Translations under genes and position numbers: made by a program
Notes under the pieces: generated by a model
Database searches by the model: none
Told to the model about the DNA's origin: nothing
What the model saw: only the letters and a program-made list of their open reading frames with translations
UHGV virus genome: UHGV-0200293
DNA: 24,650 nucleotides
Direction: 5' to 3' (one strand)
DNA from: a virus
Shown: piece after piece, positions 8,563 to 24,650 of the stretch
Position numbering within the stretch: the stretch's first letter is position 1
Layout of the letters: each line of letters starts with the position of its first letter

Positions 8563-8586
8563 TATATGCATTTGGTTTTAATTAGC

Positions 8587-8775: not shown

Positions 8776-8838
8776 CTCCAGTTAACAACATATGTAGTCT
8801 ACTACCTTCAATCTCAACGTTCCACAACATATTAATGA

Positions 8839-9408
8839 TTAATCATCATCAGCCTCAAAATCATGTTGCCCGCGCGATTCTTTTAAACGGCGTAACGTTT
8901 CATCGATGTTTTGAAGCGTAGACTCCATCAAGTCTGATTTTACAAAGTCGAATGAGAGGTGCTTGTAGTAAGGAACAGCGTATGGTAAAGGATTAACCAC
9001 GCGTATCACAGATGCTTTCGCTGTCCTGGCAAAAACAAGAGCAACGTTAAGAGCTACAAAACCCATACGTTTAACAAGATGATCATCATGGACTTGTCGC
9101 TTAAAGTGCTCAATCATATGGATGTTGACCAACTGATTTTCCATATCATAAGAGAACACTGCGGCACCGATGGTGATCGGTGGTCTACCCTTTGAGGATA
9201 CCGACAAGGTAAACTTGTTGGTAAGATTTTCGTGTTCATTTTGGAACCAACCGCTCCAATCCAGCACTTTTCCACGAAGGCTTTCAATCTGTAGCGCGTC
9301 AGCTTCACTTAAAAAATTGAGAGATAATTTTATTTCTAAAGCATCAAGTTCTTGCTGAGTTGAAACTAGCGCAAGTTCATTAACAACTTCGATTTCTTGC
9401 CGGTTCAT
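8839..9408 (-). CDS. Hypothetical protein (189 aa), accessory insert
   Basis: AT-rich ORF inserted between MuF-like and scaffold genes; acidic C-terminus; no family recognised. Confidence 0.5.
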   Translation of the reverse strand: MNRQEIEVVNELALVSTQQELDALEIKLSLNFLSEADALQIESLRGKVLDWSGWFQNEHENLTNKFTLSVSSKGRPPITIGAAVFSYDMENQLVNIHMIEHFKRQVHDDHLVKRMGFVALNVALVFARTAKASVIRVVNPLPYAVPYYKHLSFDFVKSDLMESTLQNIDETLRRLKESRGQHDFEADDD

Positions 9409-9469
9409 ATGAGTTCATTTTTAAGTTTTTTCTTATGATACCTAATCATACTACCAAAAGTTATTACAA

Positions 9470-10468
9470 TTAAGTCCCTTGCCATGATATTCGTTCTTTC
9501 GCCAACTTTTCCTTCAGCCCTTCATTGAAGATGCTGCCGTCGTCATTGAGTAGCACCGGAATCTGGCTGCAGTAACAGTTGTACCGGTTGCCGTTCTCGG
9601 CGTAGAAGTTGCGCACCTCTTCGGTCGTGTAGACCTTTCCGTGTCGGCTGGCATGCCAGGTGCGCGTCGTTGGCTTGAGCGCTGACAGCCACAGAAGGCC
9701 GGTGTTCAGCCCAAGCCTGTCGGCCGCCCAGTCCGTTTCATTCCACTGCGCCTGCCGCAGCGCGCCGACCTGTTCAGTCTGAGCGATGGTCTTCGCCTTC
9801 GACATCGACACATCGAGGCGCTTGCTGATGACACTGGCAGTCTCACGCGGATTCACTCCCCGCGCCACTGCATCAGTGATTATGTTGGTCAGATCGCCGC
9901 GGGCTGTATCGCTGATGACCTTCCAGTCACTGAACGTTGTCAGCCTGGCCGCCGCTATCTGGTTTAGATATCCGGGGCTGTTTAAAAGCTGCTGTAACGT
10001 CGTCTGGCTGGCGTACACCTGCGACTGCTGCGAGAAGTTGTTGAAGGCCTCCAGCGTACCGCGCCGCGCCTCTGCGGCGACGTAATCCATCGCCCAGAGG
10101 TTTTGCTCGCCGCCATCCAGCAGGTAATCGTCGAGAATGGCCTGCACCGCTTCGAGGAGATCCGCCAGTTCCTGCGCCGACATGTCGTAGATGAACTTGC
10201 CTGCGTTGACCTGGTAGAGCCGCATATCCTCGCCGTTGTCGTGGCACAGGAAATGCCAGTTATGGCTATTAACTTCTCGCTCTATCCCTTTCAGGCGTAG
10301 GTCGAACAGCGCTTTCAGTGCGCGCTTGATGCCGAGATACCGGTCCTCGATATCCCGGTACATCGCTGTTACCTGCTTTGCCGATCGGGTCGGGTCAACC
10401 TTGCTGCGCGGAACTACCGGTGTCCCTACTTTCGTCTTTTGCTCCGGTGTCATCGGAAAGAGGATCAT
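9470..10468 (-). CDS. Phage head morphogenesis protein (Mu F / SPP1 gp7-like); start uncertain
   Basis: 332 aa directly downstream of portal; N-terminal 74 nt overlap portal, so a downstream start is possible. Confidence 0.55.
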   Translation of the reverse strand: MILFPMTPEQKTKVGTPVVPRSKVDPTRSAKQVTAMYRDIEDRYLGIKRALKALFDLRLKGIEREVNSHNWHFLCHDNGEDMRLYQVNAGKFIYDMSAQELADLLEAVQAILDDYLLDGGEQNLWAMDYVAAEARRGTLEAFNNFSQQSQVYASQTTLQQLLNSPGYLNQIAAARLTTFSDWKVISDTARGDLTNIITDAVARGVNPRETASVISKRLDVSMSKAKTIAQTEQVGALRQAQWNETDWAADRLGLNTGLLWLSALKPTTRTWHASRHGKVYTTEEVRNFYAENGNRYNCYCSQIPVLLNDDGSIFNEGLKEKLAKERISWQGT

Positions 10469-11870
10469 CGGTCGTTACCTTTTTATTTGGGTCAGGCGGC
10501 TTAACATCTTCACGCGGCTCAAGTTCTCCTGCTTCCCTGACCTCATTTTCGTCAACAGCCGGTGTGCCATAGGCCTGTTGAGTATCCTTCGCGACTGCCG
10601 CCATTTCCTTCATGGTGGCGATCTTTTCTTTCTCACTTGGCGCGAGTAGATCAGACCAGGTTAACGTGATTTCGCCAGACTTCGGAGGTTCGATAACTTC
10701 CACAGTCCACAGGCGTTCTATAACTGCACTTGCCCGGTCAGTCTGAAACCCGTTGCGGCGACCATTACAGCGCTTGGCAAAGTCATTTTTGTCCTGATCT
10801 GACGCAAGCCTTCCTGTCTGCTGACCAAACAAGATGGTGAAAGGCATCTGAACTGAAGATGAGAACTGGTTAGCTGATACTGTCCATGTTGGGCCAGGAT
10901 CGGCGGCGGCGACAGAGAGTACTTTCGCCTCCCCATCCTGGGTAACCAGAGCGGAATCTGTACCTGAGTTAAGCTTTTGAATAGCAGCATTCAGCGCCTC
11001 AGCTAAGCCTGAATATCCAGTTCTCTTCGCCTCGTCGACGATGGTCTTGAGATTTGTCTCCTTCGACATGTTAATGCCGAGCTGTCTACTGGCGTTCTTC
11101 AGAACCCCTTCCGCACTACCGCCGGACGTTTTCGCCATATCGAGCAGGTCGTTGTAACCAGCTCGCAGGAATGGAATGCCAGCCAGCGACGTTTCATCTT
11201 CTGATCCCTCACAGAACATGATGATGCGTTCTGGGTGAATCTTAATCGACCGCATTGGCCCAGTGATGTTTCCGTTATCGCCGACCTGTTGCTCCTGGAA
11301 ATAGTAAAACTTCGGCATGCCGTAGTCTGGCGACTTTTGGTCCTGCTCAAGCTCACCGGGTTTAACCTGCGCTTCCCATGCAGGAATCATCTTGACCAGG
11401 CCGCGCTCACGAGTGTTTCGCATTACACTGCGGTCGACGGGCTCCCACCATTCCTTGCTGTCTGCAAACTGAAGGGTAAGTGCTGAGTAATGCCCAACCA
11501 GATTTCGCCGATCCGCATCCTTCACTTTCGCCCAATGTTTCTTCATGAGCTTGGTGACTTTCTTTTCCCACGGCGTCGACTTCTTAGACTTCTTCGTCTC
11601 ATCGCCGTCGACGATCACCGGGGTATCGGTCCAGCATGCATCGAGCAATTTATGCACCGCGCCGAACGCCGAGCCGTTACGTTCATACATGTTGTAGAAG
11701 TGGTAAAAGTCGAGTCGCTCCGGGTAACCAAATTCGCACCAGAGATGATATCGTTTCGTGTTACCTGACTTCCCAAGCCCTGATGCATACAACTGGCGTG
11801 CGCGGCCAACCTCGTTAAGGCTGTTCACAATGAGCCCAGCGAGGACTTGCATTTCTGTAGTGTTACTCAC
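10395..11870 (-). CDS. Portal protein
   Basis: 491 aa, acidic C-terminal tail, immediately downstream of terminase large subunit. Confidence 0.6.
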   Translation of the reverse strand: MSNTTEMQVLAGLIVNSLNEVGRARQLYASGLGKSGNTKRYHLWCEFGYPERLDFYHFYNMYERNGSAFGAVHKLLDACWTDTPVIVDGDETKKSKKSTPWEKKVTKLMKKHWAKVKDADRRNLVGHYSALTLQFADSKEWWEPVDRSVMRNTRERGLVKMIPAWEAQVKPGELEQDQKSPDYGMPKFYYFQEQQVGDNGNITGPMRSIKIHPERIIMFCEGSEDETSLAGIPFLRAGYNDLLDMAKTSGGSAEGVLKNASRQLGINMSKETNLKTIVDEAKRTGYSGLAEALNAAIQKLNSGTDSALVTQDGEAKVLSVAAADPGPTWTVSANQFSSSVQMPFTILFGQQTGRLASDQDKNDFAKRCNGRRNGFQTDRASAVIERLWTVEVIEPPKSGEITLTWSDLLAPSEKEKIATMKEMAAVAKDTQQAYGTPAVDENEVREAGELEPREDVKPPDPNKKVTTDDPLSDDTGAKDESRDTGSSAQQG

Positions 11871-11880
11871 TGAGTTGTCC

Positions 11881-13356
11881 TTATGTGAAGAAGATTGCGC
11901 CGACCTGCTTGTGGTTGTTCTTCGCTACCGCAAAGTAGCGGAAGCCGTCAGCACCGTGTGATGTGAAGTCATGAAGCGGTTTATCTTTCCAGCATCCGCG
12001 CTTGTCGTCCCACTCCTTGCGGTAGCCTTCGAGGTGAGATATGCCCTCGGCACACTTCTCCTCATCGGATACACATGATGGGAGGATTTCACGCACCGAC
12101 TCAATGCCGGTATCAACTCCCACTTTCGGAACCACCTGAAACGTCATGCTGTAAACCTGCCCGTCGATTTCATACCCCTCGCGGGCAAGCTCTCTACGGG
12201 ATTTGGCGTCAGCACCGAATTCACGGTTATCGATGTCGTGCGGGCCCCAGTGCTCGTCGTACTCGTAGCCACGGTCTTTCAGCACCTTCATGTAGTGCCT
12301 CAGGCCCTCGCCAGAGTTTTCGTAGTAGTCGATGATGTGAAACTCTTCGCCAACCTCACGAACGAACCAGATAGCCGTAGAATCGCCCACGCCGATATCC
12401 CAGAACGTATGGACCGGAAGGTGCGAGTTGTCCGGGATTTGGCCGATTCGCTTGTTGGTGTAGAGCCAGCGGAATTGTTTGGCGTAGTACGCGCCCTCGA
12501 CAGACTGCTGGAAAGCCTCCGCCGGTATGTTCGGGTATTCGCGCTTCATGTCGTCGCCGAGAGTTTTCTCTTTGGCGTAGTACCATGCTTTCTGGCGCTC
12601 GTTGACGACTACACCATGCTTCGCCTCCATTTCAGCGAAGTACTCAACCAGGCGCACCGGCAGCGATTCAACCGGGTCGATTGCGTACTGCGGGTTCTTC
12701 CACCAGGAGAAGAAGAAAAACTTCCAGTCGAGCGCGGATAATGGCTTGCCTTGCAGCAACGCTTTCTCTGCCGTCTGGCAGTAATCGAAAAAGTACCCCG
12801 CCCGGCCCTCGGCTGTGCTCTCGATAGTAGCGAAGCATCCAGTCGATACCGCTTCAAACGCACCAGTGACGATTTCACGGGCTTTGTCAGGATACTTGGC
12901 GCATATCTTCCCGAACTCGGAAACGTGCAGGTAGCGCAGCGTACCGCCACGAAACGACGTGCTGACGTAGAGTGAGCCGCCCTTCTTAAAGACGAGCTCA
13001 CCGGAAGAGTCGTTGCTAGCCGGGTTGGCCGCCTTTATCTCTGCCGGCAACTTGTCATAGGCATACTTCACCTTTTCCCGAAAGAGGCGCTTTGCATCAT
13101 TCAGTGTGTGGGCGATCAGCGCGCACTTTGCAGACTCGAACAGCGCCGCGTCCAACTGGATGATGCACACCTCAGTTGTGAAACCGAGCTGGCGAGCTTT
13201 CAGGATGATATTACGTATATGGATCCCCTCAAAGTATTTCCGTTGCTCAGGCGTCATCCTGAACCGCGTCGGCTTTCCCTCTTTGTCGGTTATCCAGTAA
13301 AGATTGTTCAGCCGCCAGTCTTTGTCGGCCAGCAGCTTGAGGTGCTCAGGTTTCAT
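11881..13356 (-). CDS. Terminase large subunit
   Basis: 491 aa; start overlaps the small-subunit stop; followed by portal. Confidence 0.7.
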   Translation of the reverse strand: MKPEHLKLLADKDWRLNNLYWITDKEGKPTRFRMTPEQRKYFEGIHIRNIILKARQLGFTTEVCIIQLDAALFESAKCALIAHTLNDAKRLFREKVKYAYDKLPAEIKAANPASNDSSGELVFKKGGSLYVSTSFRGGTLRYLHVSEFGKICAKYPDKAREIVTGAFEAVSTGCFATIESTAEGRAGYFFDYCQTAEKALLQGKPLSALDWKFFFFSWWKNPQYAIDPVESLPVRLVEYFAEMEAKHGVVVNERQKAWYYAKEKTLGDDMKREYPNIPAEAFQQSVEGAYYAKQFRWLYTNKRIGQIPDNSHLPVHTFWDIGVGDSTAIWFVREVGEEFHIIDYYENSGEGLRHYMKVLKDRGYEYDEHWGPHDIDNREFGADAKSRRELAREGYEIDGQVYSMTFQVVPKVGVDTGIESVREILPSCVSDEEKCAEGISHLEGYRKEWDDKRGCWKDKPLHDFTSHGADGFRYFAVAKNNHKQVGAIFFT

Positions 13357-13958
13357 TACGCCCCCTGAGACAGTGAATCCATCAGGTCAGACAGTTGCTT
13401 AACAGAGTTGTCGCCTTCTGGCCCGTCGATATCGCAGGCCTGGCGTTCAAGTCCGATCAAGTTCTTCAGCGCGTCGCTCAGAGCCTTCACTGACTTAACT
13501 CGCTCCGGCATGCTGATGACCTTGTGGTAAATCTCATTGAGCTTGTCCTGGCCTTTGTCGTCGGGGTCGAGCATCAACTCTCCGAGCTTCTCCAGTGCGG
13601 CCACATCTGCGCACTCTGCGCCCAGCTCATCAAACAGCGCATTGGTTATCTGGCGTGCTCGCTTAATGTCACCGCGATGCTCCATGCGGACATTGGCTAT
13701 TACCTCAGCCGTCGCCTCGATGAGTACGCGTTCGTTAAAAGTGACTTCACTGCGTACCTGCTTGCGTACCTCTGCTTTGCGTACCAGATCGTCAGCGCGT
13801 TCTTTCACTTTCGCATTCAGGTCACGTGACCAGTCGTCACGCTTGGCACGCTTACGGATAGCGCCTTCGCTGATGCCGTGTTGAGATGCTATTTCTCGGA
13901 GAGACATCACCCCGGCCCGGTACGCCGTCTCGATGGCCTCCCAGTCGGGTTTGCTCAT
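13356..13958 (-). CDS. Terminase small subunit (HTH DNA-binding)
   Basis: 200 aa; N-terminal HTH-like SLREIASQHGISEGAIRKRAKR; first gene of the packaging module. Confidence 0.6.
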   Translation of the reverse strand: MSKPDWEAIETAYRAGVMSLREIASQHGISEGAIRKRAKRDDWSRDLNAKVKERADDLVRKAEVRKQVRSEVTFNERVLIEATAEVIANVRMEHRGDIKRARQITNALFDELGAECADVAALEKLGELMLDPDDKGQDKLNEIYHKVISMPERVKSVKALSDALKNLIGLERQACDIDGPEGDNSVKQLSDLMDSLSQGA

Positions 13959-14042
13959 GCCTTTTTCCTATTAAAATATTTCCATTGATGACCTATATTA
14001 AGAAGGAAGTAACCTGTCATCTATGCTACCAGGAGATTCTCG

Positions 14043-14231
14043 ATGGGTGAAAAAATTACTGAAGATGCTATTAAGCAAGCATATAGCGTTACCGTCATGC
14101 AACTTTTTAATGTCTATCTAAATTCGGCAAGCGATCCCAACGCATCAGCAAGATTTCAGGAAGGCCTTCGACTTGCTATACAAGTACGAGATGCCTGCAT
14201 GCAAATAGCCTCCCAAAACCATGCTCCATGA
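14043..14231 (+). CDS. Hypothetical small protein (62 aa), antisense to the late operon
   Basis: RBS AGGAGA 6 nt before ATG; located between terS and Rz. Confidence 0.4.
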   Translation: MGEKITEDAIKQAYSVTVMQLFNVYLNSASDPNASARFQEGLRLAIQVRDACMQIASQNHAP

Positions 14232-14292
14232 ATTTATTAGCGACCTATTCAAAAACTGCCATTACGATGGGTCTGCTCATGGTGATGGCAAT

Positions 14293-14315
14293 AAAAAACC
14301 GCCCGGAGGCGGTTT
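14293..14315. terminator. Intrinsic terminator, strong on minus strand
   Basis: AAAAAA-CCGCC-CGGA-GGCGG-TTT; minus-strand reading gives hairpin followed by UUUUUUAUUGCC. Confidence 0.6.
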
Positions 14316-14570
14316 AGGCCGAATTTATCTACTTCCCCGTTACCCACCACTATCAAACTCAACCGCAGATGAGCTTTGCAATGACCTAAAGTCTAGCCTA
14401 GTCGGCAGAATGCCTGCCTATTAAACATGCAGTCCGACCACTCTATAAAAATCGAAAAAATAACGTTCCGTTACAAGATGAGTGAAGTGTGATCCCGGAC
14501 AATAATTTTATAGCATCCTAGGCTATAAATTTATTACGGGAATCATCTCGCTCACATAGGAAGGCCTAAA

Positions 14571-14804
14571 ATGTCAGAAATAAACATAGAAAAGTTCAAA
14601 TTGGCGTTGGCAAATTTCAGCAGTGAACTATCAAATGCAGGGATTCCTTCAGAGGGCCTGAAAATTAGCATTGATTCTCCAGCACTAAGCCAGCCATTAC
14701 ATGAAGAAATAAGCGCAATGACTCCGATGAGGTTTCAATGTCATTGGGGACCTGGAATTGGCTTTACCTGCACATTTGGCACAGAAACCATGCCTGACAA
14801 ATAG
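14571..14804 (+). CDS. Hypothetical small protein (77 aa), antisense to the late operon
   Basis: RBS AGGAAGG 6 nt before ATG; palindrome TTTATAGC-N-GCTATAAA about 50 bp upstream. Confidence 0.4.
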   Translation: MSEINIEKFKLALANFSSELSNAGIPSEGLKISIDSPALSQPLHEEISAMTPMRFQCHWGPGIGFTCTFGTETMPDK

Positions 14805-14811
14805 CCATTGT

Positions 14812-15273
14812 TTATTGACATTGATTTTTAATGTAATTCTGCAAACCAGCAATTAGGATTTTGTTGGTTGCGATTCGTTCTCTGAGATTGAAATAATCCC
14901 GTTGAGCGGCGTCAGTAAGTCTGGCGCTGGCTGCATCATCCACGCCGGGGGCGGAGGTGGCTTTACGCACGCTGTCACAGGCTGCGGCGACGCGCAGCCG
15001 TTTAGCGCCAGAATCGACATCCCTACGCAAATCGCTAATGGTGTTTTGCGCATCGAATAACTCCTGTGTGTACTTCGCATCCAGCGCGGCAACATCGCGC
15101 TGCCGGGTTGTCATGTCGGTGATGGTGGCATTAGCCAGATTCAGCGCCTGAGTCTTCTCATCGCGCTGCTTCTTGTATTCTGTGGCGTTGTCGCGGTAGT
15201 GATTAACAGCCCAGCCAAGAGATACGATGATGCAGATGACCACAGCGATGATGGTTGCGGTTAACCTGCTCAT
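14812..15273 (-). CDS. Rz-like i-spanin
   Basis: N-terminal TM helix, coiled-coil periplasmic part; start overlaps endolysin stop. Confidence 0.7.
14853..15053 (-). CDS. Rz1-like o-spanin lipoprotein embedded in Rz
   Basis: Internal start [20 protein letters not shown] (lipobox) and Pro-rich body in the +1 frame of Rz. Confidence 0.6.
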
Positions 15274-15758
15274 TTCTCACCCCACAGGCAAACTTCGCGC
15301 TCAATCTCGCGGCGGGTCATCAGCCCTTTCCACTGCTTTCCGCCAGCGTAAGTCCAGCACCTTAACTGCTCGCATGCACCTTTGATATCGCCCTGGTTGA
15401 TTTTGTACAGGAGCGTTGAGGTCTTGAAGTTTCCAGCGCCAACGTTGTACGCGAAAGAGTAAATCGCTGCTCGTTGAGTTTCAGTAGTCGGCACTTTGAT
15501 GTGCGGATCAACCTGTGCGGCAGTTCGCGTTAAATCTTTCCTGGTTAGTGCGTCGCATTCTTTATCGGAGTATCGCTTTCCGGGAATGATGTCTGAACCT
15601 GTGTGTCCATCGCATACTGTAATTACACCAACGACGTCACGGTATGCGACATACTCCCTTCCCTCAACGCCATCCTTACCTGACAGCATGACTGTTGCGA
15701 TCGCAATCGCACCGCCACCGATGGAGGCAGCAATTTTATTTCGCAGGGTGCTGTTCAT
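15270..15758 (-). CDS. SAR endolysin (T4-lysozyme-type, phage 21 R-like)
   Basis: N-terminal signal-arrest-release segment [17 protein letters not shown] and C-terminal [21 protein letters not shown], close to phage 21 R as I recall it. Confidence 0.8.
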
Positions 15759-15871
15759 CAGATTTCCTTCGGTGCTTTCTGTCTGAGATCGGCGAGAACT
15801 TCGGCTGTAGCAGATGGGTTGCTTGAATCAGTCTTGTTCAGAATGTCCTGCAGTATCTTCGTGCGCTTCAT

Positions 15872-16030
15872 TTACTCACGCTTATTGAGCCTGTATGTCA
15901 GGACGCCGAGGATGATGCTGAACGCGACGCCAATGATGAAGCCCCAGTCCTGCAATGACAGGCTGGCAAAGAAAGCCGCAAGGCCAGCGCTGCCGTATGT
16001 CGCGTTGCTGTATCTTTCGTCCATCTTCAT
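15872..16030 (-). CDS. Pinholin-like class II holin (phage 21 S-like), 52 aa
   Basis: Met-Lys-Met dual start, two TM segments with Gly-rich first helix; not in ORF track (under 60 aa); RBS GAGGAG. Confidence 0.6.
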   Translation of the reverse strand: MKMDERYSNATYGSAGLAAFFASLSLQDWGFIIGVAFSIILGVLTYRLNKRE

Positions 16031-16212
16031 AGTCTCTCTCCTCGCGGTAAATGCGGGAGCTGTGTGTTGTAGGGTCAGGCCCTCGGGCTGGATTTAACAA
16101 CAAAGCGTATCGAGAATGATTCCCGAAACCTGAAATAGAAAAAAAGATTTTTTAATAGAGATTTAAGTTTTCTAGAAAATTGCCGATTTAAAAATCTTTC
16201 ACAGGAGGAAAC

Positions 16213-16473
16213 ATGCATCACATCTATCGCGTACAAGATACACAAGTGGCCAACTTTAGGCTTGAAGCACATAAGCACCACCCAGCACTTTCAATTCATC
16301 TTATCAGTACTGGAACCAGCATTAATGCAGGCAAATTCTTTAACTCTAATATTGAGGTTTTTGTTGCGATTTCTGACACCCAAACACTTGGCGCTTTGAA
16401 CTCAGATTTAATGCTAAACGCAGCAACAAAAAATAGCTTCACCCCGCTAGGAAGCGCAGAGTTTTATATTTGA
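16213..16473 (+). CDS. Hypothetical protein (86 aa), antisense gene between Q and holin
   Basis: RBS AGGAGG 4 nt before ATG; AT-rich; stop followed by a hairpin terminator. Confidence 0.45.
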   Translation: MHHIYRVQDTQVANFRLEAHKHHPALSIHLISTGTSINAGKFFNSNIEVFVAISDTQTLGALNSDLMLNAATKNSFTPLGSAEFYI

Positions 16474-16484
16474 GAAACAACAAT

Positions 16485-16515
16485 AAAAAAGCCCAAGGTG
16501 TTAACCTCGGGCTTT
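16485..16515. terminator. Hairpin terminator; candidate late terminator tR-prime on minus strand
   Basis: A6-GCCCAAGGTGTTAACCTCGGGC-TTT; minus-strand reading ends in UUUUUUAUUG, about 50 nt downstream of the candidate late promoter. Confidence 0.5.
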
Positions 16516-16567
16516 AATTCTTTGTGTCGACAATTAAAGCTATAACGACGATATCAGACTTACATAA

Positions 16568-16596
16568 AATATATGCGTTTCAGTTCGGTTTTGCAA
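16568..16596 (-). promoter_or_regulatory. Candidate sigma-70 late promoter (pR-prime analogue) at the 3' end of the Q-like gene
   Basis: Minus strand TTGCAA-17 nt-TATATT; position matches lambda pR-prime just after Q. Confidence 0.35.
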
Positions 16597-17263
16597 GACT
16601 TACATTCGAATTTGTCGCCTTTTGTTGTAAACGTGATCGCGTTACGGAGATAAGCGCATCATTATCGAGCCGCTTAAAGACATTACGCAGTGCCAACCAG
16701 TGAGGCAGGTACGTCTCTGTCCAGGTGGATTTAGCTACGCCCACCAGCTCAGCCAGCTTCTGGTACTCGTACGTCTCGCGGCCGCACAGCTCTGCTTTGA
16801 CGTCCTGCGCCGCCAACCAGATTAACGCCCGGAGTCGCTCCAGCGTTTTTCCGGCGATTTTCTTGCCAGCGAGTTGCGCCGTAAACTTATTCCATGCCCA
16901 GCGGGTTATGTCGACCTGATATTCAAACCGAGTATTTTCACTGTAGCTCCAGAGCAACTAGGCTTTTTGATGCTCGTCGAGCGACATTAGCGCCCGACGC
17001 CATGAAGCAGTGGAGTATTCAACCGGCTGCACCAGCGGGATATGCGATCCTTTGGCGTGTGATTGTTTTCCGGGGATCGGAGGGTTGTTCAGCGTTATCA
17101 GTTTTCCCGTAACTTCATCGCGTACACGCAACCTCTTGCGGGGGTAAGTATTCGTATCGAACTGCGCGTTCTCCAGCCAGGCCATTAACTGACCCTTTGT
17201 CGCTCCGCTCAGATCTGCCGTGGCCGCAATCAGTTGCTGGCGAATATAGGATAAATTTTTCAC
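16580..17263 (-). pseudogene. Late-gene regulator (Q-antiterminator-like by position) interrupted by an in-frame amber codon
   Basis: ORF-track ORFs 16958..17263 and 16580..16957 are contiguous and in frame, separated only by TAG (16958-16960); the distal 125 codons contain no ATG; GTG start with SD GGGGA. Confidence 0.5.
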
Positions 17264-17400
17264 TGATTTTCCCCTGCTTTCTGCTGAATACGGATGTAAT
17301 TGCGAAGGATGCGGTATGCCACCGGAAAAGATCCCCGGTAGCGATAAATGCGGAGACGCAGCCAGCGCAGACGGAGTATCTCGATCACTTCTGGTTTCAT
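17260..17400 (-). CDS. Small ORF (46 aa) translationally coupled to ninG
   Basis: ATG overlaps NinG stop (ATGA); its stop overlaps the Q-like GTG start. Confidence 0.3.
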   Translation of the reverse strand: MKPEVIEILRLRWLRLRIYRYRGSFPVAYRILRNYIRIQQKAGENQ

Positions 17401-17977
17401 GCAGCCTCCTGACGCTTCAACTCTTTGAGTTTTGCCCGGTACTCATCACGAATTCGGATGTAGTCTTCACGTTTCCATTTGGGTAATTCGTGCGGCCCCA
17501 TAAGGGCATCAAAGCGGGCCTGGCTGATTTTGGTGATCAGCGCCGGTCGATAGGCAATTAGGTTTCCTGACAGATGGTTATTGCAGGGGGCGCACTGGCG
17601 ATGACAGTTGTCTTCATTAAACCGCAACTCAGGGTTTGCGCCGGTCGTGCGGAAGTGACCGGCGTGATACTGCCCTTCATGGTGACGCCCACAACTGATG
17701 CATGGCAGATGCCTGTCACGGTAGCGGATGAACTCGTTAAAGGCCTGCTGGGCCTGCTTAATGAAGTAGCTGAGTGGTTTCACTGCCTGACAACGCTCAG
17801 CCAGACGCTTACGTTCGGCCTTCTCCCCCCCAAGTCGGCGCTTTTTATCTTTCCGTTGCTTCTCGGCTTTGGCTGCGTCATTCACGACTAGACGTACTGC
17901 TCATGACGGACCGGGTTAAACCACTCACGGCATACTGTGCATTTTCGGCGAGGGCGCTTTTTCTGATTATTAGCCAT
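17397..17977 (-). pseudogene. NinG/Rap-like recombination protein, frameshifted near the N-terminus
   Basis: Good RBS and ATG at 17975-17977 open a 29-codon frame (RRKCTVCREWFNP...) ending at TAG 17888-17890; the remaining 162 codons (KQAQQAFNEF...LPCISCG...) continue in a different frame from GTG 17885. Confidence 0.5.
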
Positions 17978-17979
17978 AA

Positions 17980-18186
17980 TCACCCCCATCCTTTTTGTCG
18001 GAAGGTTCTCGGCGTCCGCGCCGGACGTTCGCATTCTTGTAATTTCGCGCTGACTGTCCAGGTCAGGAAATCAGGATTGAGGCTCTTTTGGGCTCTGACG
18101 CCGCGAGACTGATAATCGGCAATCAGGCGCTCTGCCTGCTCGGTGGTGCATTCCGTGTGATGAAAATATGAATACTTCATCGCCAT
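17980..18186 (-). CDS. Small nin-region protein (68 aa)
   Basis: ATG overlaps upstream stop (TGATG); ORF-track ORF extends upstream into the neighbouring gene. Confidence 0.4.
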   Translation of the reverse strand: MAMKYSYFHHTECTTEQAERLIADYQSRGVRAQKSLNPDFLTWTVSAKLQECERPARTPRTFRQKGWG

Positions 18187-18785
18187 CACCCCGCAAAGCT
18201 CATAAGCTGGGCGGCGGCATTTTCGGCCTCTTCCCTGCTGTTGAAAGTGCGGGACAAGATCCAGCGCCACAGGACATCGAGTGCGGCCTTATAGAGGTGC
18301 TGGAATTCGGTTTCGTCCATACTGGCGAACGCGATGCTGCGAGGGTGTTTGCGGAGCGTGCCATCTGGTAACTGGATGGCGTCAAAGTGACCGGCCTCAA
18401 CAGTTACCCAGGCCCGGTATGCATCAAAGGATTTACACAGGCTGATTCCGTTCGTGATACGGCGACTGGCGATCTGCTCCAGATACTGCTCGGCAGCATC
18501 CAGCAGAGCGCTTTCATTGCCGCCGTATGAGGCAAGGAATCTGGCATAACCGTTAACGAGTTTGCGTTCATTCGAAGAAATAGCGCCGCCGGTTGGTTCC
18601 CAGTATTCGAACCCGAGATTCAGGAGCGCAAAGAAACGGCGATGAAATGCCGGATTGCGGACAAGCTTAAAGTCGGCAACCAGAACGGAGCCGAGCTTGC
18701 ATTTTGATTGCAGAAAATCACTGGTCTCCGGCGTAGCGGGGATCAGTATTCCGGTCGACTGCTTAATAAGATGTAATTGCGCCAT
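18186..18785 (-). CDS. Phage nin-region protein (DUF1367-like)
   Basis: 199 aa; family assignment from memory; position upstream of NinG. Confidence 0.4.
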   Translation of the reverse strand: MAQLHLIKQSTGILIPATPETSDFLQSKCKLGSVLVADFKLVRNPAFHRRFFALLNLGFEYWEPTGGAISSNERKLVNGYARFLASYGGNESALLDAAEQYLEQIASRRITNGISLCKSFDAYRAWVTVEAGHFDAIQLPDGTLRKHPRSIAFASMDETEFQHLYKAALDVLWRWILSRTFNSREEAENAAAQLMSFAG

Positions 18786-18822
18786 GGTTGTTCACTCCGT
18801 GGCGCAGCAGGTTAACGGCTGT

Positions 18823-19071
18823 TCAGACCGTTGATTTCATATTATCAGAAGGTGGCGTTACCCGGTAGCCGAGACGGCGAATAAATTGCATAAAGCCATT
18901 GGGAGTAAAGACTTCTTCATCATCCAGCAAAGGCCGCATGGAAACCATGCCATTGACGCGATAGATAAGATGCCTGCCCGACGAAGGAAAGCTAAACACC
19001 ACGCAGCCGTCAGACCGTCTTACAATGTCATACCAGTTATCTTCTGACGTTTGCAAAGCTGAATTACTCAC
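18823..19071 (-). CDS. Hypothetical phage protein (82 aa), GTG start
   Basis: RBS AGGGAGA about 7 nt before GTG. Confidence 0.35.
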   Translation of the reverse strand: MSNSALQTSEDNWYDIVRRSDGCVVFSFPSSGRHLIYRVNGMVSMRPLLDDEEVFTPNGFMQFIRRLGYRVTPPSDNMKSTV

Positions 19072-19187
19072 ATTCTGTTCTCCCTTCGAGCGACATACAG
19101 ACGCGGTTAAAAATTGTCGGCAGCAGCATCAAAGGGATACGCAAATTGCGGTATTCTGAAAAATGCGCGCCAGCCCCAAGCGCAATG

Positions 19188-19421
19188 TTAGTAAAACCAG
19201 TCGTCAGCGCTTTCCCAGGTATCCTGGAGAATCTCCTCAATGCACTGCTTATCCCCTTTTTCACCCCCCAGAATACTCAGGCCGTCAGCTCCGGCGCGAC
19301 GAACTGTCAGTTTCACATCTTCATAGCTCTGACTGAGTCTGCGTAACAGTTCAGCTTCTAATGCTAGCACTGCGCCATCAGGAAGTTTCTTAGTACGATC
19401 AATGGTTAATTCAATTTTCAT
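19188..19421 (-). CDS. DinI-family protein (prophage copy)
   Basis: MKIELTIDRTKKLPDGAVLALEAELLRR...DKQCIEEILQDTWESADDWF aligns along its length with E. coli DinI as I recall it. Confidence 0.75.
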   Translation of the reverse strand: MKIELTIDRTKKLPDGAVLALEAELLRRLSQSYEDVKLTVRRAGADGLSILGGEKGDKQCIEEILQDTWESADDWFY

Positions 19422-19441
19422 AATGGGCTCCACCACGAAAA

Positions 19442-19457
19442 CTGTATATTTATACAG
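19442..19457. promoter_or_regulatory. LexA (SOS) box upstream of the dinI homologue
   Basis: CTGTATATTTATACAG fits CTGT-N8-ACAG; lies 21-36 nt upstream of the dinI-like ATG. Confidence 0.6.
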
Positions 19458-19530
19458 CACACCTATAAATCAGAATGATCAACGATTTAAGAGCACGAAT
19501 AGTTAACCTGCAGACACAAATTCCAGGCGT

Positions 19531-19552
19531 AAAAAAACCCGCCGAAGCGGGG
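19531..19552 (-). terminator. Intrinsic terminator (minus strand)
   Basis: Minus-strand RNA CCCCGC-UUCG-GCGGG followed by UUUUUUU. Confidence 0.55.
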
Positions 19553-19559
19553 TTAATCA

Positions 19560-19772
19560 TTAAGAGCATCGCGCCCTGGCTTTAATTTCTTGTCTTCCCA
19601 TACCGTGGTACCTGCGCTGATGACCACACATCCAACAGGAGCACAGACATGGTGTATGGTAGACCTTACCAAATGCAACTGGCCCACCAGAACACGCATT
19701 GCGGTAATGTCTGCGTTTTGATTTAAGCCTTGCAGCATGATGTCGGCGCAGAGCGCGCTTTTGTGATTTCAT
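19560..19772 (-). CDS. Small basic Cys/His-rich protein (70 aa), possibly zinc-binding
   Basis: RBS GGAG 7 nt before ATG; HTPCLCSCWMCGH cluster; an overlapping alternative frame (19553..19738) lacks an RBS. Confidence 0.3.
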   Translation of the reverse strand: MKSQKRALRRHHAARLKSKRRHYRNACSGGPVAFGKVYHTPCLCSCWMCGHQRRYHGMGRQEIKARARCS

Positions 19773-19913
19773 AACAGAACTCCGTAAATTTTATCGGAGC
19801 GGCCACACCTTCGCATAGCCGCCTGAACGGGAGCTCTGAATAGATTATTTTTCTCATTCTATTAATATGACATTAAAATATTCTGGACTAAAAAATAGCC
19901 TCATCGGGTTAGT

Positions 19914-20114
19914 TTACGGACGTGGATGCATCTTTCTCCATCGCTTCCAGAAACCATATTCTTGCCTAATATTGCTCTCGCAAGTAAGCCTTCCATACTT
20001 CGTTGTCGGTGGGTTAGCTATGATGCTCTCCAGCGATTCTCCAGCATCAAGGCGAGCATAAATTATGTAATCAGCCGCATTCGGATTTTTTGGCTCTGCC
20101 TTTCCAACACTCAT
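19914..20114 (-). CDS. Small putative HTH DNA-binding protein (66 aa), Ner/Cro-like?
   Basis: RBS AGGAGG 4 nt before internal ATG; ADYIIYARLDAGESLESIIA weakly resembles the Ner/Nlp HTH; first gene next to the divergent regulatory region. Confidence 0.3.
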   Translation of the reverse strand: MSVGKAEPKNPNAADYIIYARLDAGESLESIIANPPTTKYGRLTCESNIRQEYGFWKRWRKMHPRP

Positions 20115-20139
20115 GAATCCTCCTGACACTCAATGATAC

Positions 20140-20165
20140 GTGCTCTCTGATGTTATGGAGAGCAC
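20140..20165. promoter_or_regulatory. Inverted repeat GTGCTCTC-N10-GAGAGCAC in the 5' leader of the 66-aa gene
   Basis: Perfect 8-bp arms read from sequence. Confidence 0.4.
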
Positions 20166-20290
20166 ATCAGCGTAAACAAATATTATTAGGCCACGGTCTC
20201 TTTCAATACTAGGGCCTCGTCGAACGGCTGCGGCACAGCATTACCGCAGCGGGAAACCCTGCGTGGTAGATTTCGTGCAGTTGAAACATT

Positions 20291-20317
20291 AGTAATGAAG
20301 TCTGTCACTTCATTACT
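20291..20317. promoter_or_regulatory. Inverted repeat AGTAATGAAGT-CTGTC-ACTTCATTACT
   Basis: Perfect 11-bp arms, plus a third partial copy (GAAGTAATG) immediately downstream. Confidence 0.4.
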
Positions 20318-20365
20318 GAAGAAGTAATGTAACTATCATATTTTAAATATCTGAAAATAACTATA

Positions 20366-20385
20366 CAATTCAATAAATTGAATTG
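20366..20385. promoter_or_regulatory. 20-bp palindrome CAATTCAAT-AA-ATTGAATTG before the lipoprotein gene
   Basis: Perfect 9-bp arms, 20 bp upstream of the lipoprotein ATG. Confidence 0.4.
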
Positions 20386-20405
20386 CAGCATGACGGGAAA
20401 CATAT

Positions 20406-20810
20406 ATGATAAAATTTTTAATGTTGATTGTGGTGACATTAACCATTGCAGGTTGCTCCCCTCTTGCACCTACAGGCTGTCAGAAAAAAAACGCAATGGA
20501 ATCATGCGAATATAAGAGTTCAGGTAAAGTGTCGGATAAGGATATATATGGATGGTACTCATCCAGAATAAAAAAAGCTTTGGACGCAGCACTTACAGAG
20601 CCCCATGCCTGGAATGGTAAAAGATGTGACGCTCATCTGGATTTCAAAGTCGATGGCACCCTGCAAAATTTTATCGTGAAAGGTGGTGACAAAGATTATT
20701 GCGCTGCATTGCAAAAAGCTTCTGAAAGAGCGACATTCCCGGCGTTTACCGATCGGAGAGTTTACTTTAATATGGGTTCCGCAAGATGGAACTTCGAAGG
20801 TCAGCCATGA
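20406..20810 (+). CDS. Lipoprotein with TolA C-terminal (domain III)-like domain
   Basis: Signal peptide with lipobox LTIAGC; C-terminus GKRCDAHLDFKVDGTLQNFIVKGGDKDYCAALQKA...FPAF aligns with E. coli TolA GKTCTLRIKLAPDGMLLDIKPEGGDPALCQAALAAA...IPKPP (from memory). Confidence 0.6.
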   Translation: MIKFLMLIVVTLTIAGCSPLAPTGCQKKNAMESCEYKSSGKVSDKDIYGWYSSRIKKALDAALTEPHAWNGKRCDAHLDFKVDGTLQNFIVKGGDKDYCAALQKASERATFPAFTDRRVYFNMGSARWNFEGQP

Positions 20811-21093
20811 AAACTATGGTGCGCCGGGAGATCCCCGGCGTTCTCAACCTGAGAAAAAACCATTTTCACTTCTGCTGGTCAAACAGCTTCCTCAACATCC
20901 ACCAGCAGCAGGTTTTCCAGCTCTATAATCCGATTGGTGGTGTATTGCAGAAGTTGATCCATCATGCCTCCTGCTGCGGTGCTGCTGGCAGTGGCATCCA
21001 GTGAGTTGGCTTGCAATAAACACCACCACCATTCGGAAGTGATGCAAACCTAAACCATCCATCTGTTTCATTGTGCTCAATGTATCCGACCAT

Positions 21094-21381
21094 CTACTCT
21101 TTCTTATCAGCGCAGTAAACCTGAACATCAACATCGCGATCCGGCATCCGCTCGCTTACCGGAATCCATCTGCCTGGCAACTTGTAAGCGTCACTTACAG
21201 GTTCATCGTTCTGAGCATCACGCAGAGCACAAAAGACTTTATTACGCAATTCGTTGAACTCGTCAGAGCGAATAACCCTGCGCCAGTCCAGCGCATGAGC
21301 GTACAGGAAATCACTGGCGAGGTTAGCACCACGACCAGCGCGCAGGAATCGGCAACTAACGTTGATGCCGTTGCCGACGAT
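21094..21381 (-). pseudogene. Remnant of a DUF551-like phage early gene (no start codon, truncated)
   Basis: Minus-frame translation ...LDWRRVIRSDEFNELRNKVFCALRDAQNDEPVSDAYKLPGRWIPVSERMPDRDVDVQVYCADKKE* is open without any usable start; W-I-x-V-S-E-R-M-P motif resembles DUF551. Confidence 0.3.
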
Positions 21382-21705
21382 CTACGCGATCGCATTGATA
21401 CAGCAAGCTCCGTTGTTCAGGCAAAAGCCATTCGCGTGGATATCGAATCACAGAAAGTGTTGCTGGGAACCGCCCTGTACACCGAACTGAAAAATAAGGC
21501 GGTGAAACGTTACTACCAGGTCGATGCGCAGAACAAGGTCGGGGCTGTGATCAACTCACTTCCAAATCCCGGCGAACCGGAAGCCACAGCGATGTTCGCT
21601 AAAGCTGAAAGTACGCTCACCGCAGCCAAACGTCATCTGGGCGATGAACTGTATGACCAGTTCCGCATCACCCTGGACGACATGAAACCGGAATACGTGG
21701 GCTAA
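21295..21705 (+). CDS. Hypothetical early-region protein (about 137 aa, start uncertain)
   Basis: 3' part of ORF-track ORF 21073..21705; upstream part overlaps the minus-strand remnant; weak RBS at the ATG. Confidence 0.3.
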   Translation: MSVQEITGEVSTTTSAQESATNVDAVADDLRDRIDTASSVVQAKAIRVDIESQKVLLGTALYTELKNKAVKRYYQVDAQNKVGAVINSLPNPGEPEATAMFAKAESTLTAAKRHLGDELYDQFRITLDDMKPEYVG

Positions 21706-21744
21706 GGGAGGCGGGAGGGCGGCCCTCCCGTCACAGGGGGTTAT

Positions 21745-21984
21745 ATGCGCCTTATCAATCGCAGTAAGCAATCGCCGTTAGGTCGTCGGGCGTGCGATGC
21801 AGCACTGGCAAAGCATGTTGAACTTTACGGGGAGTTTGGCCGACAGAAAACAAAGACCACTTATACCGTGGCAGTCGACGGCGTGAAGGTGACGGTTGAA
21901 GTTGTTAACCGACACAAGAGCTATGTAGCCACCGCAATGACAGGTATGCGCCGACTGCGCGCACTGCCAGGGCAGATAGCCTGA
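21745..21984 (+). CDS. Hypothetical protein (79 aa)
   Basis: RBS AGGGGG 4 nt before ATG; preceded by a GC hairpin GGGAGGG-CGG-CCCTCCC. Confidence 0.35.
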   Translation: MRLINRSKQSPLGRRACDAALAKHVELYGEFGRQKTKTTYTVAVDGVKVTVEVVNRHKSYVATAMTGMRRLRALPGQIA

Positions 21985-22048
21985 TAACGAATTATCAATG
22001 TCACAACACCGGCGCATCTATACTGGCGCCGGTTACCTGAGGTGAACT

Positions 22049-22264
22049 ATGTCACAGGTAATTTTTAACGAAGAGTGGGTTGTTGAGTCCAGACTTACCG
22101 AAAGAACAGGGCTTACTGAAGGACAGATTAAAAATTATCGCCTGAAGCTATGGGTTGAAGGTGTTCACTTCAAGCGCCTTACTGCGCTTGGACAGACTGA
22201 CAACTCTAAAGGTCTGCTTTGGTACAACTACCCGAAGATTAATCAGTTAGTTCAGGATGCTTAA
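22049..22264 (+). CDS. Excisionase-like protein
   Basis: 71 aa immediately upstream of and overlapping the integrase start; RBS GAGGTG. Confidence 0.5.
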   Translation: MSQVIFNEEWVVESRLTERTGLTEGQIKNYRLKLWVEGVHFKRLTALGQTDNSKGLLWYNYPKINQLVQDA

Positions 22265-23550
22265 TGAAATACCCGACTGGTGTTGAACTGCATAACGGAA
22301 AAATCAGGATCACATTTATCTATCGCGGCATTCGTTGCCGCGAAGTTCTCCAGGGTTGGGTTGTCAACAGTAGCAACATTAAAAAAGCGGGCAATCTGCG
22401 CGCAGCAATTGTGAGTGAGATACAACTCGGTAAGTTCGACTACGCAGATCGTTTCCCGGAATCAAAAGCTCTTAAGAAATTTTCGTCCACAAAACGGATC
22501 TCCACATTCAAAGAACTGAGTGATTTTTTTACAGATACAAAGTCACTGGAGGTATCTGAAGCCACTTTGCTATCCATCACATCAGTCGTTAACACCCTGA
22601 AACGAGTCGTGGGCGAGAACACACGGCTGGTTGATATTCAGCACGCAGATATTCTGAATTACCGCAAAGAACTCCTGACCGGGGAAGTTTTCAACCCTTC
22701 AATACCAAACCGCATCAAAAATGGGCGCGCGCCCTCAACAGTCAATAAACAGATGGCTGTTTTATCAGAAATGCTGAAGCTTGCAAACCGAAGCCAGTTT
22801 ATATTGCATGCTCCTTATGAAGGAGTGTCGCGACTCAAGTTATCTAAAAATGATCCCGACCCACTTTTACTTCATGAGTACCAGGCACTGATAGCCGCCC
22901 TTCCCCGTAGCCAGGCATTAATCATCATTATTGCGGTACATACAGGGATGAGGCCGGGCGAGATATGCGCACTGGCATGGGAAGATATTGATTTGGTAAA
23001 AGGTGAAATCCACGTATCCAGAAATTTGACGAACAAGCAAGTATTTGTACCCCCTAAAACAGATGCCGGGATAAGGACGATAACGTTGCTGAAACCTGCT
23101 CATGATGCTCTGCTGGAGCAATACGAAATCACTGGGAACAGTCCAAAACAGGAAATTCAGTTTCATCATCGTGAGATCGGAAAAACTGAGCAGCAATATC
23201 TTCGCTTCGTTTTTTCACCGACAACATACTCGTCAACGAAAGGCGGTTACTTTTCCAAGGACTCGATTTCGTATGGCTGGAAACGTGGGACTAAACTTTC
23301 AGGTATACGTGAGCGCAATCCATATCAGTCGCGTCACACATATGCCTGCTGGACGCTGATGGCCGGAGCGACCCCGTCGTTCATTGCCAGCCAGATGGGA
23401 CATGAAGATGCGCGGATGGTATACGAGGTTTACTCCAAGTGGATTGGTGATATGAACCAGGATCAGGTCAACATGCTGAACAATCAGATGCCGACAGCAC
23501 TGCCTCCAGGACGCCCCCAAGGGCGAGGGAGTATGAAAAAAGTCATTTAA
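22264..23550 (+). CDS. int: Tyrosine-type site-specific integrase
   Basis: 428 aa; C-terminal catalytic region with SRHTYA and GHEDARMVYEVY; at the prophage end next to the host gene. Confidence 0.85.
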   Translation: MKYPTGVELHNGKIRITFIYRGIRCREVLQGWVVNSSNIKKAGNLRAAIVSEIQLGKFDYADRFPESKALKKFSSTKRISTFKELSDFFTDTKSLEVSEATLLSITSVVNTLKRVVGENTRLVDIQHADILNYRKELLTGEVFNPSIPNRIKNGRAPSTVNKQMAVLSEMLKLANRSQFILHAPYEGVSRLKLSKNDPDPLLLHEYQALIAALPRSQALIIIIAVHTGMRPGEICALAWEDIDLVKGEIHVSRNLTNKQVFVPPKTDAGIRTITLLKPAHDALLEQYEITGNSPKQEIQFHHREIGKTEQQYLRFVFSPTTYSSTKGGYFSKDSISYGWKRGTKLSGIRERNPYQSRHTYACWTLMAGATPSFIASQMGHEDARMVYEVYSKWIGDMNQDQVNMLNNQMPTALPPGRPQGRGSMKKVI

Positions 23551-23620
23551 TTTCATAGCGCTGGTTTCAATCCACATAATCAGCGTTAAACTACTAATAC
23601 CGTTAATTTAGGGAGAAAAG

Positions 23621-24295
23621 ATGATGCGCGTACTGGTTGTCGAAGATAATGCCTTATTACGCCACCACCTGAAGGTTCAATTACAGGATTTGGGGCACCA
23701 GGTTGATGACGCAGAAGATGCAAAGGAAGCCGATTATTATCTTAACGAGCATCTGCCGGACATCGCCATCGTCGATTTAGGCCTCCCGGATGAAGACGGG
23801 CTTTCGCTGATCCGCCGCTGGCGCAGCAATGACGTTTCCCTTCCTGTTCTGGTATTAACCGCCCGTGAGGGCTGGCAGGATAAAGTGGAAGTGCTGAGCG
23901 CCGGCGCCGACGACTACGTGACAAAACCGTTTCATATTGAAGAAGTGGTCGCGCGTATGCAGGCGTTAATGCGCCGCAACAGCGGCCTGGCCTCGCAGGT
24001 TATCTCTATTCCGCCTTTTCAGGTGGATCTCTCCCGCCGTGAATTGTCCGTAAATGATGAAGTGATAAAATTGACGGCGTTTGAATACACCATTATGGAA
24101 ACGCTGATCCGCAATAATGGCAAAGTCGTCAGCAAAGATTCGTTGATGCTACAGCTCTACCCGGATGCGGAACTGCGTGAAAGCCATACCATTGATGTAT
24201 TAATGGGGCGCTTACGCAAAAAAATTCAGGCGCGATATCCTGATGATGTGATTACCACCGTCCGTGGTCAGGGATACCTGTTCGAACTGCGCTAA
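23621..24295 (+). CDS. phoP: Two-component response regulator PhoP
   Basis: Near-identical along its length to enterobacterial PhoP ([19 protein letters not shown]...TVRGQGY.FELR); real start may be the second Met at 23624. Confidence 0.95.
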
Positions 24296-24650
24296 TGAAT
24301 AAATTACTGCGTCATCTTTTTCCTTTATCGCTGCGCCTGCGCTTTCTGCTGGCGACGGCAGGCGTTGTGCTGGTGCTCTCTCTGGCCTACGGCATGGTCG
24401 CACTGGTTGGCTATAGCGTCAGTTTTGATAAGACAACCTTTCGCCTGTTACGCGGTGAGAGCAACCTTTTCTACACCCTCGCGTCATGGCAAAACAATAA
24501 AATCAATATCGAGATCCCGGAAAATCTCGATATGCAAAGCCCCACGATGACACTGATCTATGATGAGAACGGCAAGTTGTTATGGGCGCAGCGCAACGTT
24601 CCCTGGCTGGAGAAACGTATCCAGCCGGAATGGCTGAAAGCCAACGGTTT
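24295..24650 (+). CDS. phoQ: Sensor kinase PhoQ, N-terminal part (3' end outside window)
   Basis: ATG overlaps phoP stop (TAATG); N-terminus [22 protein letters not shown]...[21 protein letters not shown] matches PhoQ. Confidence 0.9.

Follow-up and report, generated by a model that had tools for sequence, protein, structure and literature searches.

A prophage attachment site within the phoP promoter of Citrobacter koseri, and a candidate surrogate promoter inside the phage integrase gene

The UHGV virus genome UHGV-0200293, a 24,650-nucleotide (nt) stretch of DNA referred to here as the window, contains a prophage whose integrase gene, int, ends beside the host genes phoP and phoQ. Comparison with strains in which the site is empty makes it near certain that integration cut the phoP P1 promoter between its PhoP box and its −10 element. 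Inside int lies a PhoP-box-like repeat, reversed relative to phoP and followed by a −10-like hexamer, and this block persists in bacteria where most of int is physically gone. The best explanation for the locus, advanced with moderate confidence and read from sequence, couples the promoter-splitting insertion with a PhoP-dependent surrogate promoter embedded in int. Coordinates are collected in Table 1.

The course of events is read as follows. A tyrosine integrase resembling Rac IntR inserted the prophage at a 19-bp core lying over the P1 −10 element and predicted start. The PhoP box stayed with purB at the left attachment site (attL), now pointing into the phage genes gtrABC, and phoP was left with its own −10, its leader, and phage DNA upstream. 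Transcription of phoPQ in this strain would depend on phage-side signals, of which a promoter within int is the likeliest. The reverse box (22735–22751) and the hexamer TATATT (22800–22805) would form, in int, a PhoP-dependent promoter of the type called architecture V, which would read across the 3′ end of int and, after about 810 nt (about 110–540 nt in remnants), into phoP, and would restore positive autoregulation of phoPQ, and the displaced native promoter would transcribe gtrABC. The element and the right attachment site (attR) survive in remnants from which, in the E. cloacae/hormaechei group and in other genera, the DNA upstream of phoP is now formed.

Evidence for the insertion comes from empty sites (attB), found through an exact-protein look-up of PhoP and flanked by sequence 99.2–99.5% identical to that of the occupied site. 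In three C. koseri genomes (L169, L176, and L178; L176 is AP023452, the published genome of strain MPUCK001), purB is followed directly by phoP. Their sequence reads GGTTTAcgaaaTGTTTA, 12 nt, then CATAATCAGCGTTAAACT, within a stretch (CCCCGGTTTACGAAATGTTTATCCCCGCCGCAACATAATCAGCGTTAAACTACTAATACC) that leads to ATGATG; the purB–phoP intergenic region includes CCCCGGTTTACGAAATGTTTA-TCCCCGCCGCAA-CATAAT-CAGCGTTAAACTACTAATACCGTTAATTTAGGGAGAAAAGATGATG. This native layout, in which 12 nt separate a direct PhoP box from the −10 downstream, is also found in about 50 other species representatives. The 19-bp core, ACA(T/C)AATCAGCGTTAAACT, is present as a single copy in each empty site and as two copies in the occupied one: attR, at 23574–23592, where native sequence begins, and attL, at L084:5279–5297, with one C/T difference between them. 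The window holds no second copy of the core; attL lies just outside, and was recovered from the same-scaffold loci L081 and L084 (L084 and L085 extend the window leftwards, and window position 1 corresponds to L084:5731). There, some 450 bp before the window begins (window-equivalent positions −479 to −433), attL and the displaced native box stand in the order purB, intact PhoP box (L084:5251–5267), 12 nt, CACAAT, CAGCGTTAAACT, phage DNA, then gtrA, gtrB, and gtrC on the same strand. The element measures 24,025 bp, and the PhoP box is now 24.0 kb upstream of phoP. Scored with a position weight matrix derived from 47 native phoP boxes, which themselves average 27.8 (minimum 15.5), the attL box reaches 28.7, whereas the best site on either strand of 23400–23625 reaches 3.3; hence there is no PhoP box in the gap between int and phoP. 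Because both half-sites are gone from attR and intact at attL, the junction must lie inside P1.

That the arrangement might instead be ancestral, or an assembly artefact, is hardly credible: occupied and empty sites coexist in C. koseri with flank identity of 99.2–99.5%, each prophage end, attL and attR, has its own copy of the core, and the same junction recurs in many independent assemblies. The insertion structure as a whole is near certain. Assignment of the host DNA to C. koseri, carrying a 24.0-kb defective lambdoid prophage, likewise follows from sequence comparison: the PhoP protein is 97–98% identical to Citrobacter PhoP, and the window phoP DNA, at most 85% identical to that of any of the 80 species representatives recovered, is 99.5% identical to that of C. 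koseri MPUCK001 (AP023452). Neither attP (circular attP included) nor attL sequences were found in IMG/VR scans, and metagenome scans gave no match to the reconstructed empty site.

Transcription from E. coli P1 begins 36 nt ahead of the start codon (PMC3536696), and promoters P2 and P3 are located upstream of P1 (PMC3536696, PMC3750022). Applying the E. coli P1 distance places the predicted start near 23588, within the core; by homology, then, the core would span P1 from the −10 to about +5, and by the same analogy the upstream constitutive promoters would also have been left with purB at attL. The −10 (CATAAT) and the phoP leader are kept in the window, identical to those of the empty-site C. 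koseri strains. The core mismatch itself (window 23577 versus L084:5282) is polymorphic: the window and its deletion relatives carry CATAAT at attR and CACAAT at attL, attR in most other C. koseri lysogens (among L089–L091 and L170–L177) reads CACAAT, and the empty sites read CATAAT. Either 23577 is a strand-exchange overlap position or the window lineage has regained a stronger −10.

An earlier note, drawn from the letters of the window, had placed the prophage junction inside the phoPQ promoter, and both its description and its placing of the junction are borne out; its suggestion that autoregulation may have been altered needs one qualification, in that an element within int, described below, may compensate for the lost box. 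The sequence and the list of open reading frames (ORFs) agree with its gap of 70 nt between the int stop codon (23550) and the phoP start (23621, or 23624), and its CATAAT is present at 23575–23580. The enterobacterial phoP layout that it gave, a direct PhoP box upstream of CATAAT, is that of the empty-site C. koseri strains, and alignment with these strains, the check that it proposed, shows 23551–23573 to be phage-derived, as the note had held for the DNA upstream of phoP. Agreement between the window and the empty site begins at 23574 and continues to the right; the alignment puts the core at 23574–23592, with both half-sites absent from attR and intact at attL, and 23551–23620 does not contain the complete native promoter of the same species. 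The note had also remarked on a lone GGTTTC hexamer without a second half-site. It is there, at 23563–23568, and no site in 23400–23625 exceeds the score of 3.3. As a residual half-site, however, it was rejected: it is phage DNA, it occurs in all attR junctions, and at 6 nt from the −10 it has the wrong geometry.

What, then, drives phoPQ? A weak hybrid promoter straddles the junction, in which phage-derived TTCATA (23552–23557) is separated by 17 nt from the native CATAAT. With 9 of 12 consensus matches, it is the only σ70-like match in 21900–23650. No intrinsic terminator was found between int and phoP, so read-through from int is possible, as the note had suggested, and the two sources together probably add basal, PhoP-independent expression. 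One rival account goes no further than this: autoregulation would simply have been lost, expression of phoPQ, from the hybrid promoter and by read-through past the int end, where no strong terminator stands, would be more or less constant, and the int-internal block would be unrelated to phoP. The window's CATAAT, closer to consensus than the CACAAT of most C. koseri lysogens, could on this account be an up-mutation of an activator-independent promoter. Yet the −35-like hexamer falls to three of six matches (TTCATG) in most Enterobacter lysogens, and Salmonella from which the PhoP box has been deleted fails to grow when Mg2+ is low (PMC2650801), so that simple loss of autoregulation should be costly. 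Simple loss also leaves unexplained both the synonymous-site constraint in intact int genes and the recurrence, in non-coding remnants of many genera, of precisely the box and TATATT, 48 or 37 nt apart. It is judged unlikely, even though a C. koseri remnant that lacks the block, considered below, speaks in its favour.

The int-internal repeat, TGTTTAttgacTGTTGA, fits the pattern (T/G)GTTTA-N5-(T/G)GTT(T/G)A, for which the chance expectation, by our own estimate, is about 0.05 sites per window. GTTGA half-sites are also present in the native phoP boxes of some species. The spacing from the box to TATATT is exactly 48 nt, and a half-site-like AGTTTA overlaps TATATT (GGTTTA in E. cloacae-group remnants). 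These features recall architecture V of Zwir et al. 2012 (PMC3335776), the class of PhoP promoters of horizontally acquired Salmonella genes in which a reverse box lies upstream of the −10. Natural reverse boxes in that study stand 30, 37, 47, 48, 49, or 58 nt from the −10, an engineered one is active at 27, 37, and 48 nt, and a second box overlaps the −10 or follows the start site. The 48 nt of the window falls within the natural range of 30–58 nt. No credible terminator was found between 22812 and phoP, and 22000–23800 has no match in Rfam. Two other uses of the block were considered and rejected: a leftward, minus-strand promoter that would have the box in direct orientation, since remnants show no conservation leftwards of the box; and a small peptide, since reading frames differ and L059 has the middle of the block replaced.

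Conservation of the block points the same way. Synonymous diversity was computed over 75 distinct intact int genes in 421 eight-codon windows. Its minimum falls at codons 156–163 (22729–22752), at 0.066 against a gene mean of 0.339; codons 177–180 (CAGTTTATATTG) also are low, and GTTTATATT is invariant across the 75 genes. The motif is kept in all 17 occupied species representatives, including the decayed ones, where most of int is physically gone and a block of about 22733–22803 is left. Left deletion endpoints come within 3–38 nt of the motif; right endpoints lie at or beyond 22803, and at 22803–22819 in the most reduced remnants. At least six to eight remnant architectures have unrelated left flanks (the E. 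hormaechei/cloacae group, Scandinavium, L052, L042, L012, L028, L005, and L059). Across nine non-coding remnants both half-site cores, GTTTA and GTTGA, are invariant; variation falls in the spacer and at the first base of the two half-sites. Eleven remnants have 48 nt between box and −10, and two unrelated ones (L042 and L059) have 37 nt, one helical turn less and also an experimentally active distance. Chance co-retention comes to about 1e-9, a crude product of retained fractions that assumes independent remnants. Taken together, these comparisons indicate that the int-internal block is under constraint, and the element may compensate for the lost box through its predicted PhoP dependence. 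A published experiment bears indirectly on PhoP dependence: PhoP of E. cloacae shifted a −230 to +20 phoP fragment in an electrophoretic mobility shift assay (bioRxiv 10.1101/516872), and in the E. cloacae representative L055 this stretch holds the block, with its box at −180, and no canonical box.

Several points weigh against a surrogate promoter. The shift assay used strain ATCC 13047, whereas the block was read in L055. Independence of the remnants is judged from their unrelated flanks, and recombination between genera may occur. The C. koseri remnant L177 persists without the block entirely, so the block is not indispensable in the short term. Compared with architecture V, the second box is represented by only a half-site, AGTTTA, at the −10. 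TATATT has no recognisable −35 and was missed by the σ70 scan; absence of a −35 is expected of an activator-dependent promoter, and equally of a sequence that is no promoter. Finally, the leader of about 810 nt in the intact lysogen would have to cross a weak terminator-like hairpin at 23230–23246. With all this in the balance, the surrogate autoregulatory promoter, taken alone, rates slightly better than an even chance.

The block might instead serve the phage: as a site for Int, Xis, integration host factor (IHF), or another factor, or as a promoter for gtrABC acting across attP or for a regulatory RNA, with survival in remnants incidental. Constraint in intact phage genes is what such a function would leave, and the order int, attP, gtrABC in the circular phage means that a rightward promoter in int would face gtrABC. 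Two further stretches of low synonymous diversity, 23455–23478 and 22321–22344, probably do reflect attP-arm or promoter functions of this kind. The block, though, lies 840 bp from the core, beyond the range of lambda-type arm sites. The lack of an Rfam match offers nothing to an RNA. Remnants, moreover, have kept the half-sites, the −10, and their helical phasing beside phoP after losing int, xis, gtr, and attL, and so have no phage function left for selection to act on. A purely phage-serving block is accordingly rated quite improbable. The two stretches themselves have synonymous diversity of 0.08–0.09 (mean 0.34); 23455–23478, about 100–120 bp from the core, may hold attP arm-type or IHF sites, and 22321–22344 is near the int 5′ end.

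The displaced box at attL is co-oriented with gtrABC, a gtrABC-type set in which GtrA and GtrB match PF04138 and PF00535; the third ORF, of 566 codons, matches no Pfam family. No terminator was found between L084:5293 and gtrA (5615), and the same interval contains a phage σ70-like promoter, TAAACA-18-TATAAT. In other gtr operons a Dam/OxyR phase-variation layout occurs. Such a layout is not evident in L084:5298–5614, from the attL core to gtrA, which has repeated GACAATA and GCCCC motifs and only two GATC sites. Other remnants, L012 among them, have cargo beside attL that is not co-oriented, so the link between the box and gtr may be specific to this phage. A fuller model is tentative, and falls a little short of an even chance: that a widespread lineage of temperate phages, integrating at the −10/+1 of P1, carries out a two-way promoter swap, the host PhoP box and upstream promoters passing to conversion genes (here gtrABC) and an architecture V promoter hidden in int passing to phoPQ, whose autoregulation it would maintain, as a resident element in decayed lineages that include the E. 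cloacae and E. hormaechei representatives.

This integrase lineage appears, in the sequences sampled, only beside phoP, and is dedicated to the phoP P1 core. It has a catalytic domain (PF00589, Phage_integrase, residues 204–391, E = 5e-17), an N-terminal arm-binding domain (PF12167, Arm-DNA-bind_2, residues 4–68, E = 2e-25), and an adjacent putative excisionase (DUF1233), as expected of a tyrosine recombinase. Either int or its remnants adjoin phoP in 17 of 80 species representatives, among them Citrobacter, Enterobacter, Lelliottia, and Scandinavium. The gene is intact (87% protein identity) in C. braakii, Enterobacter genomosp. O, and Lelliottia wanjuensis, and the copies beside phoP in 13 more species representatives are frameshifted or fragmentary. 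Among IMG/VR prophage contigs, 80 carry int at 84–99% identity, and every contig that extends past int (more than 50) runs into the same core and phoP, with host-specific leaders. The nearest integrases of isolated phages are those of PHB10 (51% identical) and Rac (IntR, 49.6%), and no isolated phage in the phage collection has this integrase at more than 51% identity; nor was a comparable int found beside phoP in E. coli genomes. The exact 15-mer AATCAGCGTTAAACT of the core occurs in 48 of the 80 species representatives and is altered in Escherichia and Salmonella enterica. These diverged cores in E. coli and S. enterica may explain why the site escaped notice. No description of a phage attachment site at phoP/purB was found in the literature; as far as the literature searched shows, the phage lineage at the phoP P1 core, its remnants as phoP upstream region, and the constrained architecture V-like element in int, which may replace the lost box, are new.

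Decay takes various forms. C. koseri strains L082 and L083 have clean deletions of about 12.5–12.8 kb, covering 6.4–19.1 kb of the window (6389–19220), that remove head, terminase, and lysis genes and keep gtrABC, xis, int, and both attachment sites; other C. koseri deletions lie within int (22956–23509) or take nearly all of it. Representatives of E. hormaechei (L026), E. cloacae (L055), E. quasihormaechei (L030), E. intestinihominis (L024), and E. pasteurii (L049) have 900–2240 bp between purB and phoP, made up of the int block, attR, and foreign DNA that they share; attL is deleted, and no canonical PhoP box stands between the two genes. Other Enterobacter species, for example E. asburiae and E. 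bugandensis, have kept the native promoter. The remnant in L012 (1965–5065), 4.7 kb long, lies between phoP and a degenerate attL box, and has as cargo two large minus-strand ORFs of 491 and 541 amino acids (aa).

The promoter region has been altered in other ways as well. Citrobacter amalonaticus S646 (L009) has about 126 bp of unrelated DNA (−174 to −48) between the native core/−10 and the phoP leader, with its box at −204: a different insertion into the same promoter. Six Pseudocitrobacter and Klebsiella loci (L068, L072, L073, L077, L078, and L080) have 1.6–3.3 kb between purB and phoP and no canonical box by pattern search, and differ from the common enterobacterial layout. In E. coli NZ_CM143895.1, an IS3-like ISEc52 transposase is annotated directly beside phoP.

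Several known systems bear comparison. The Rac integrase IntR/YdaQ of E. coli, which targets ttcA, is 49.6% identical over 97% of its length, among the nearest of sequenced phages, and its module has the same order: a short excisionase-like gene, int, an attachment site at the int 3′ end, and a host gene. Its target, however, is the ttcA coding region and not a promoter, and IntR has no PhoP-box-like repeat at the homologous codons or elsewhere in the gene; nor does the PHB10 int anywhere in its length. Phage 21 and e14, in icd, replace what their integration disrupts. PhiSM of Citrobacter rodentium, at the 5′ end of pdxB (PMC6456863), likewise inserts site-specifically at an important locus and supplies substitute signals or gene ends. 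In these cases the phage provides coding ends or a constitutive junction promoter, whereas here it would provide an activator-dependent promoter 0.8 kb inside int, and a host activator site also passes to phage cargo.

Architecture V promoters (ugtL, pagK, pgtE, mgtC, pagC, as well as pipD; PMC3335776) share the reverse box, 37–58 nt upstream of the −10, the further PhoP-type sequence overlapping the −10, and residence in horizontally acquired DNA. The present candidate differs from them in being embedded in integrase coding sequence, in its presumed target, the regulator's own operon, and in having only a half-site as second box. Yersinia pestis phoP (upstream of y1795; Perez et al. 2009, PMC2650801) also has no PhoP box immediately upstream, and autoregulation is kept through a farther-upstream box from which the transcript extends into phoP. 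In Yersinia the farther promoter is that of a chromosomal gene; in the window it is a phage that displaces the box, and the candidate replacement is phage DNA.

Table 1. Features of the window (positions on the 24,650-nt stretch; strand relative to the sequence as given)
Feature	Positions	Strand	Evidence and remarks
gtrA, 3′ part	1–271	+	Pfam PF04138; gene start 115 bp left of window
gtrB-like, glycosyltransferase family 2	271–1227	+	Pfam PF00535, E = 4e-24
gtrC-like ORF, 566 aa, low-GC cargo	1214–2914	+	ORF list; GC 0.32–0.39
Defective lambdoid prophage body	2941–22048		PHROGs and Pfam matches
Excisionase-like gene, DUF1233, 71 aa	22049–22264	+	Pfam PF06806, E = 5e-23; overlaps int start
Tyrosine integrase int, 428 aa	22264–23550	+	PF12167 and PF00589; stop TAA 23548–23550
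PhoP-box-like direct repeat, reverse relative to phoP	22735–22751	-	TGTTTAttgacTGTTGA; best box score in whole window
−10-like hexamer TATATT	22800–22805	+	Putative internal promoter facing phoP
Phage-derived arm TTTCATAGCGCTGGTTTCAATCC	23551–23573	+	attR versus attB alignment; takes the place of the PhoP box/−35 region
Attachment (att) core	23574–23592		attL/attR/attB comparison; includes phoP P1 −10
phoP	23621–24295	+	ORF list; 224 aa from 23621, 223 aa from second ATG at 23624
phoQ, 5′ part	24295–24650	+	Sequence; gene calls in L081

By PHROGs and Pfam matches, the prophage body contains a truncated major tail gene, head genes, portal, large and small terminase subunits, and lysis genes, together with Q, NinG, NinB, DinI, a TolA-like ORF, a C-terminal fragment of RecT, and DUF4060. 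Genes for immunity or replication were not identified by the same searches, nor was any tail gene except the truncated one; for this reason the prophage is called defective. The TolA-like ORF (20406–20810), next to dinI, encodes a TolA C-terminal domain (Pfam E = 9e-11), and may act in superinfection exclusion or as a decoy for colicin or phage entry.

PhoP/PhoQ governs Mg2+ homeostasis, virulence, and polymyxin resistance, and positive autoregulation by PhoP is regarded as conserved and physiologically necessary. A phage family has its attachment site at the heart of this autoregulatory promoter, and some C. koseri strains have the PhoP box linked to phoP while others do not. If the proposed model is true, the phage would bring its own replacement part, built on another promoter architecture, for the regulatory circuit that its insertion breaks, and O-antigen modification genes would come under PhoP control through integration alone. 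The phoP promoter studied in colistin heteroresistance of the E. cloacae complex would then be phage-derived, and a phage-born element would be, in several lineages, the resident autoregulatory promoter of a master regulator of virulence and polymyxin resistance.

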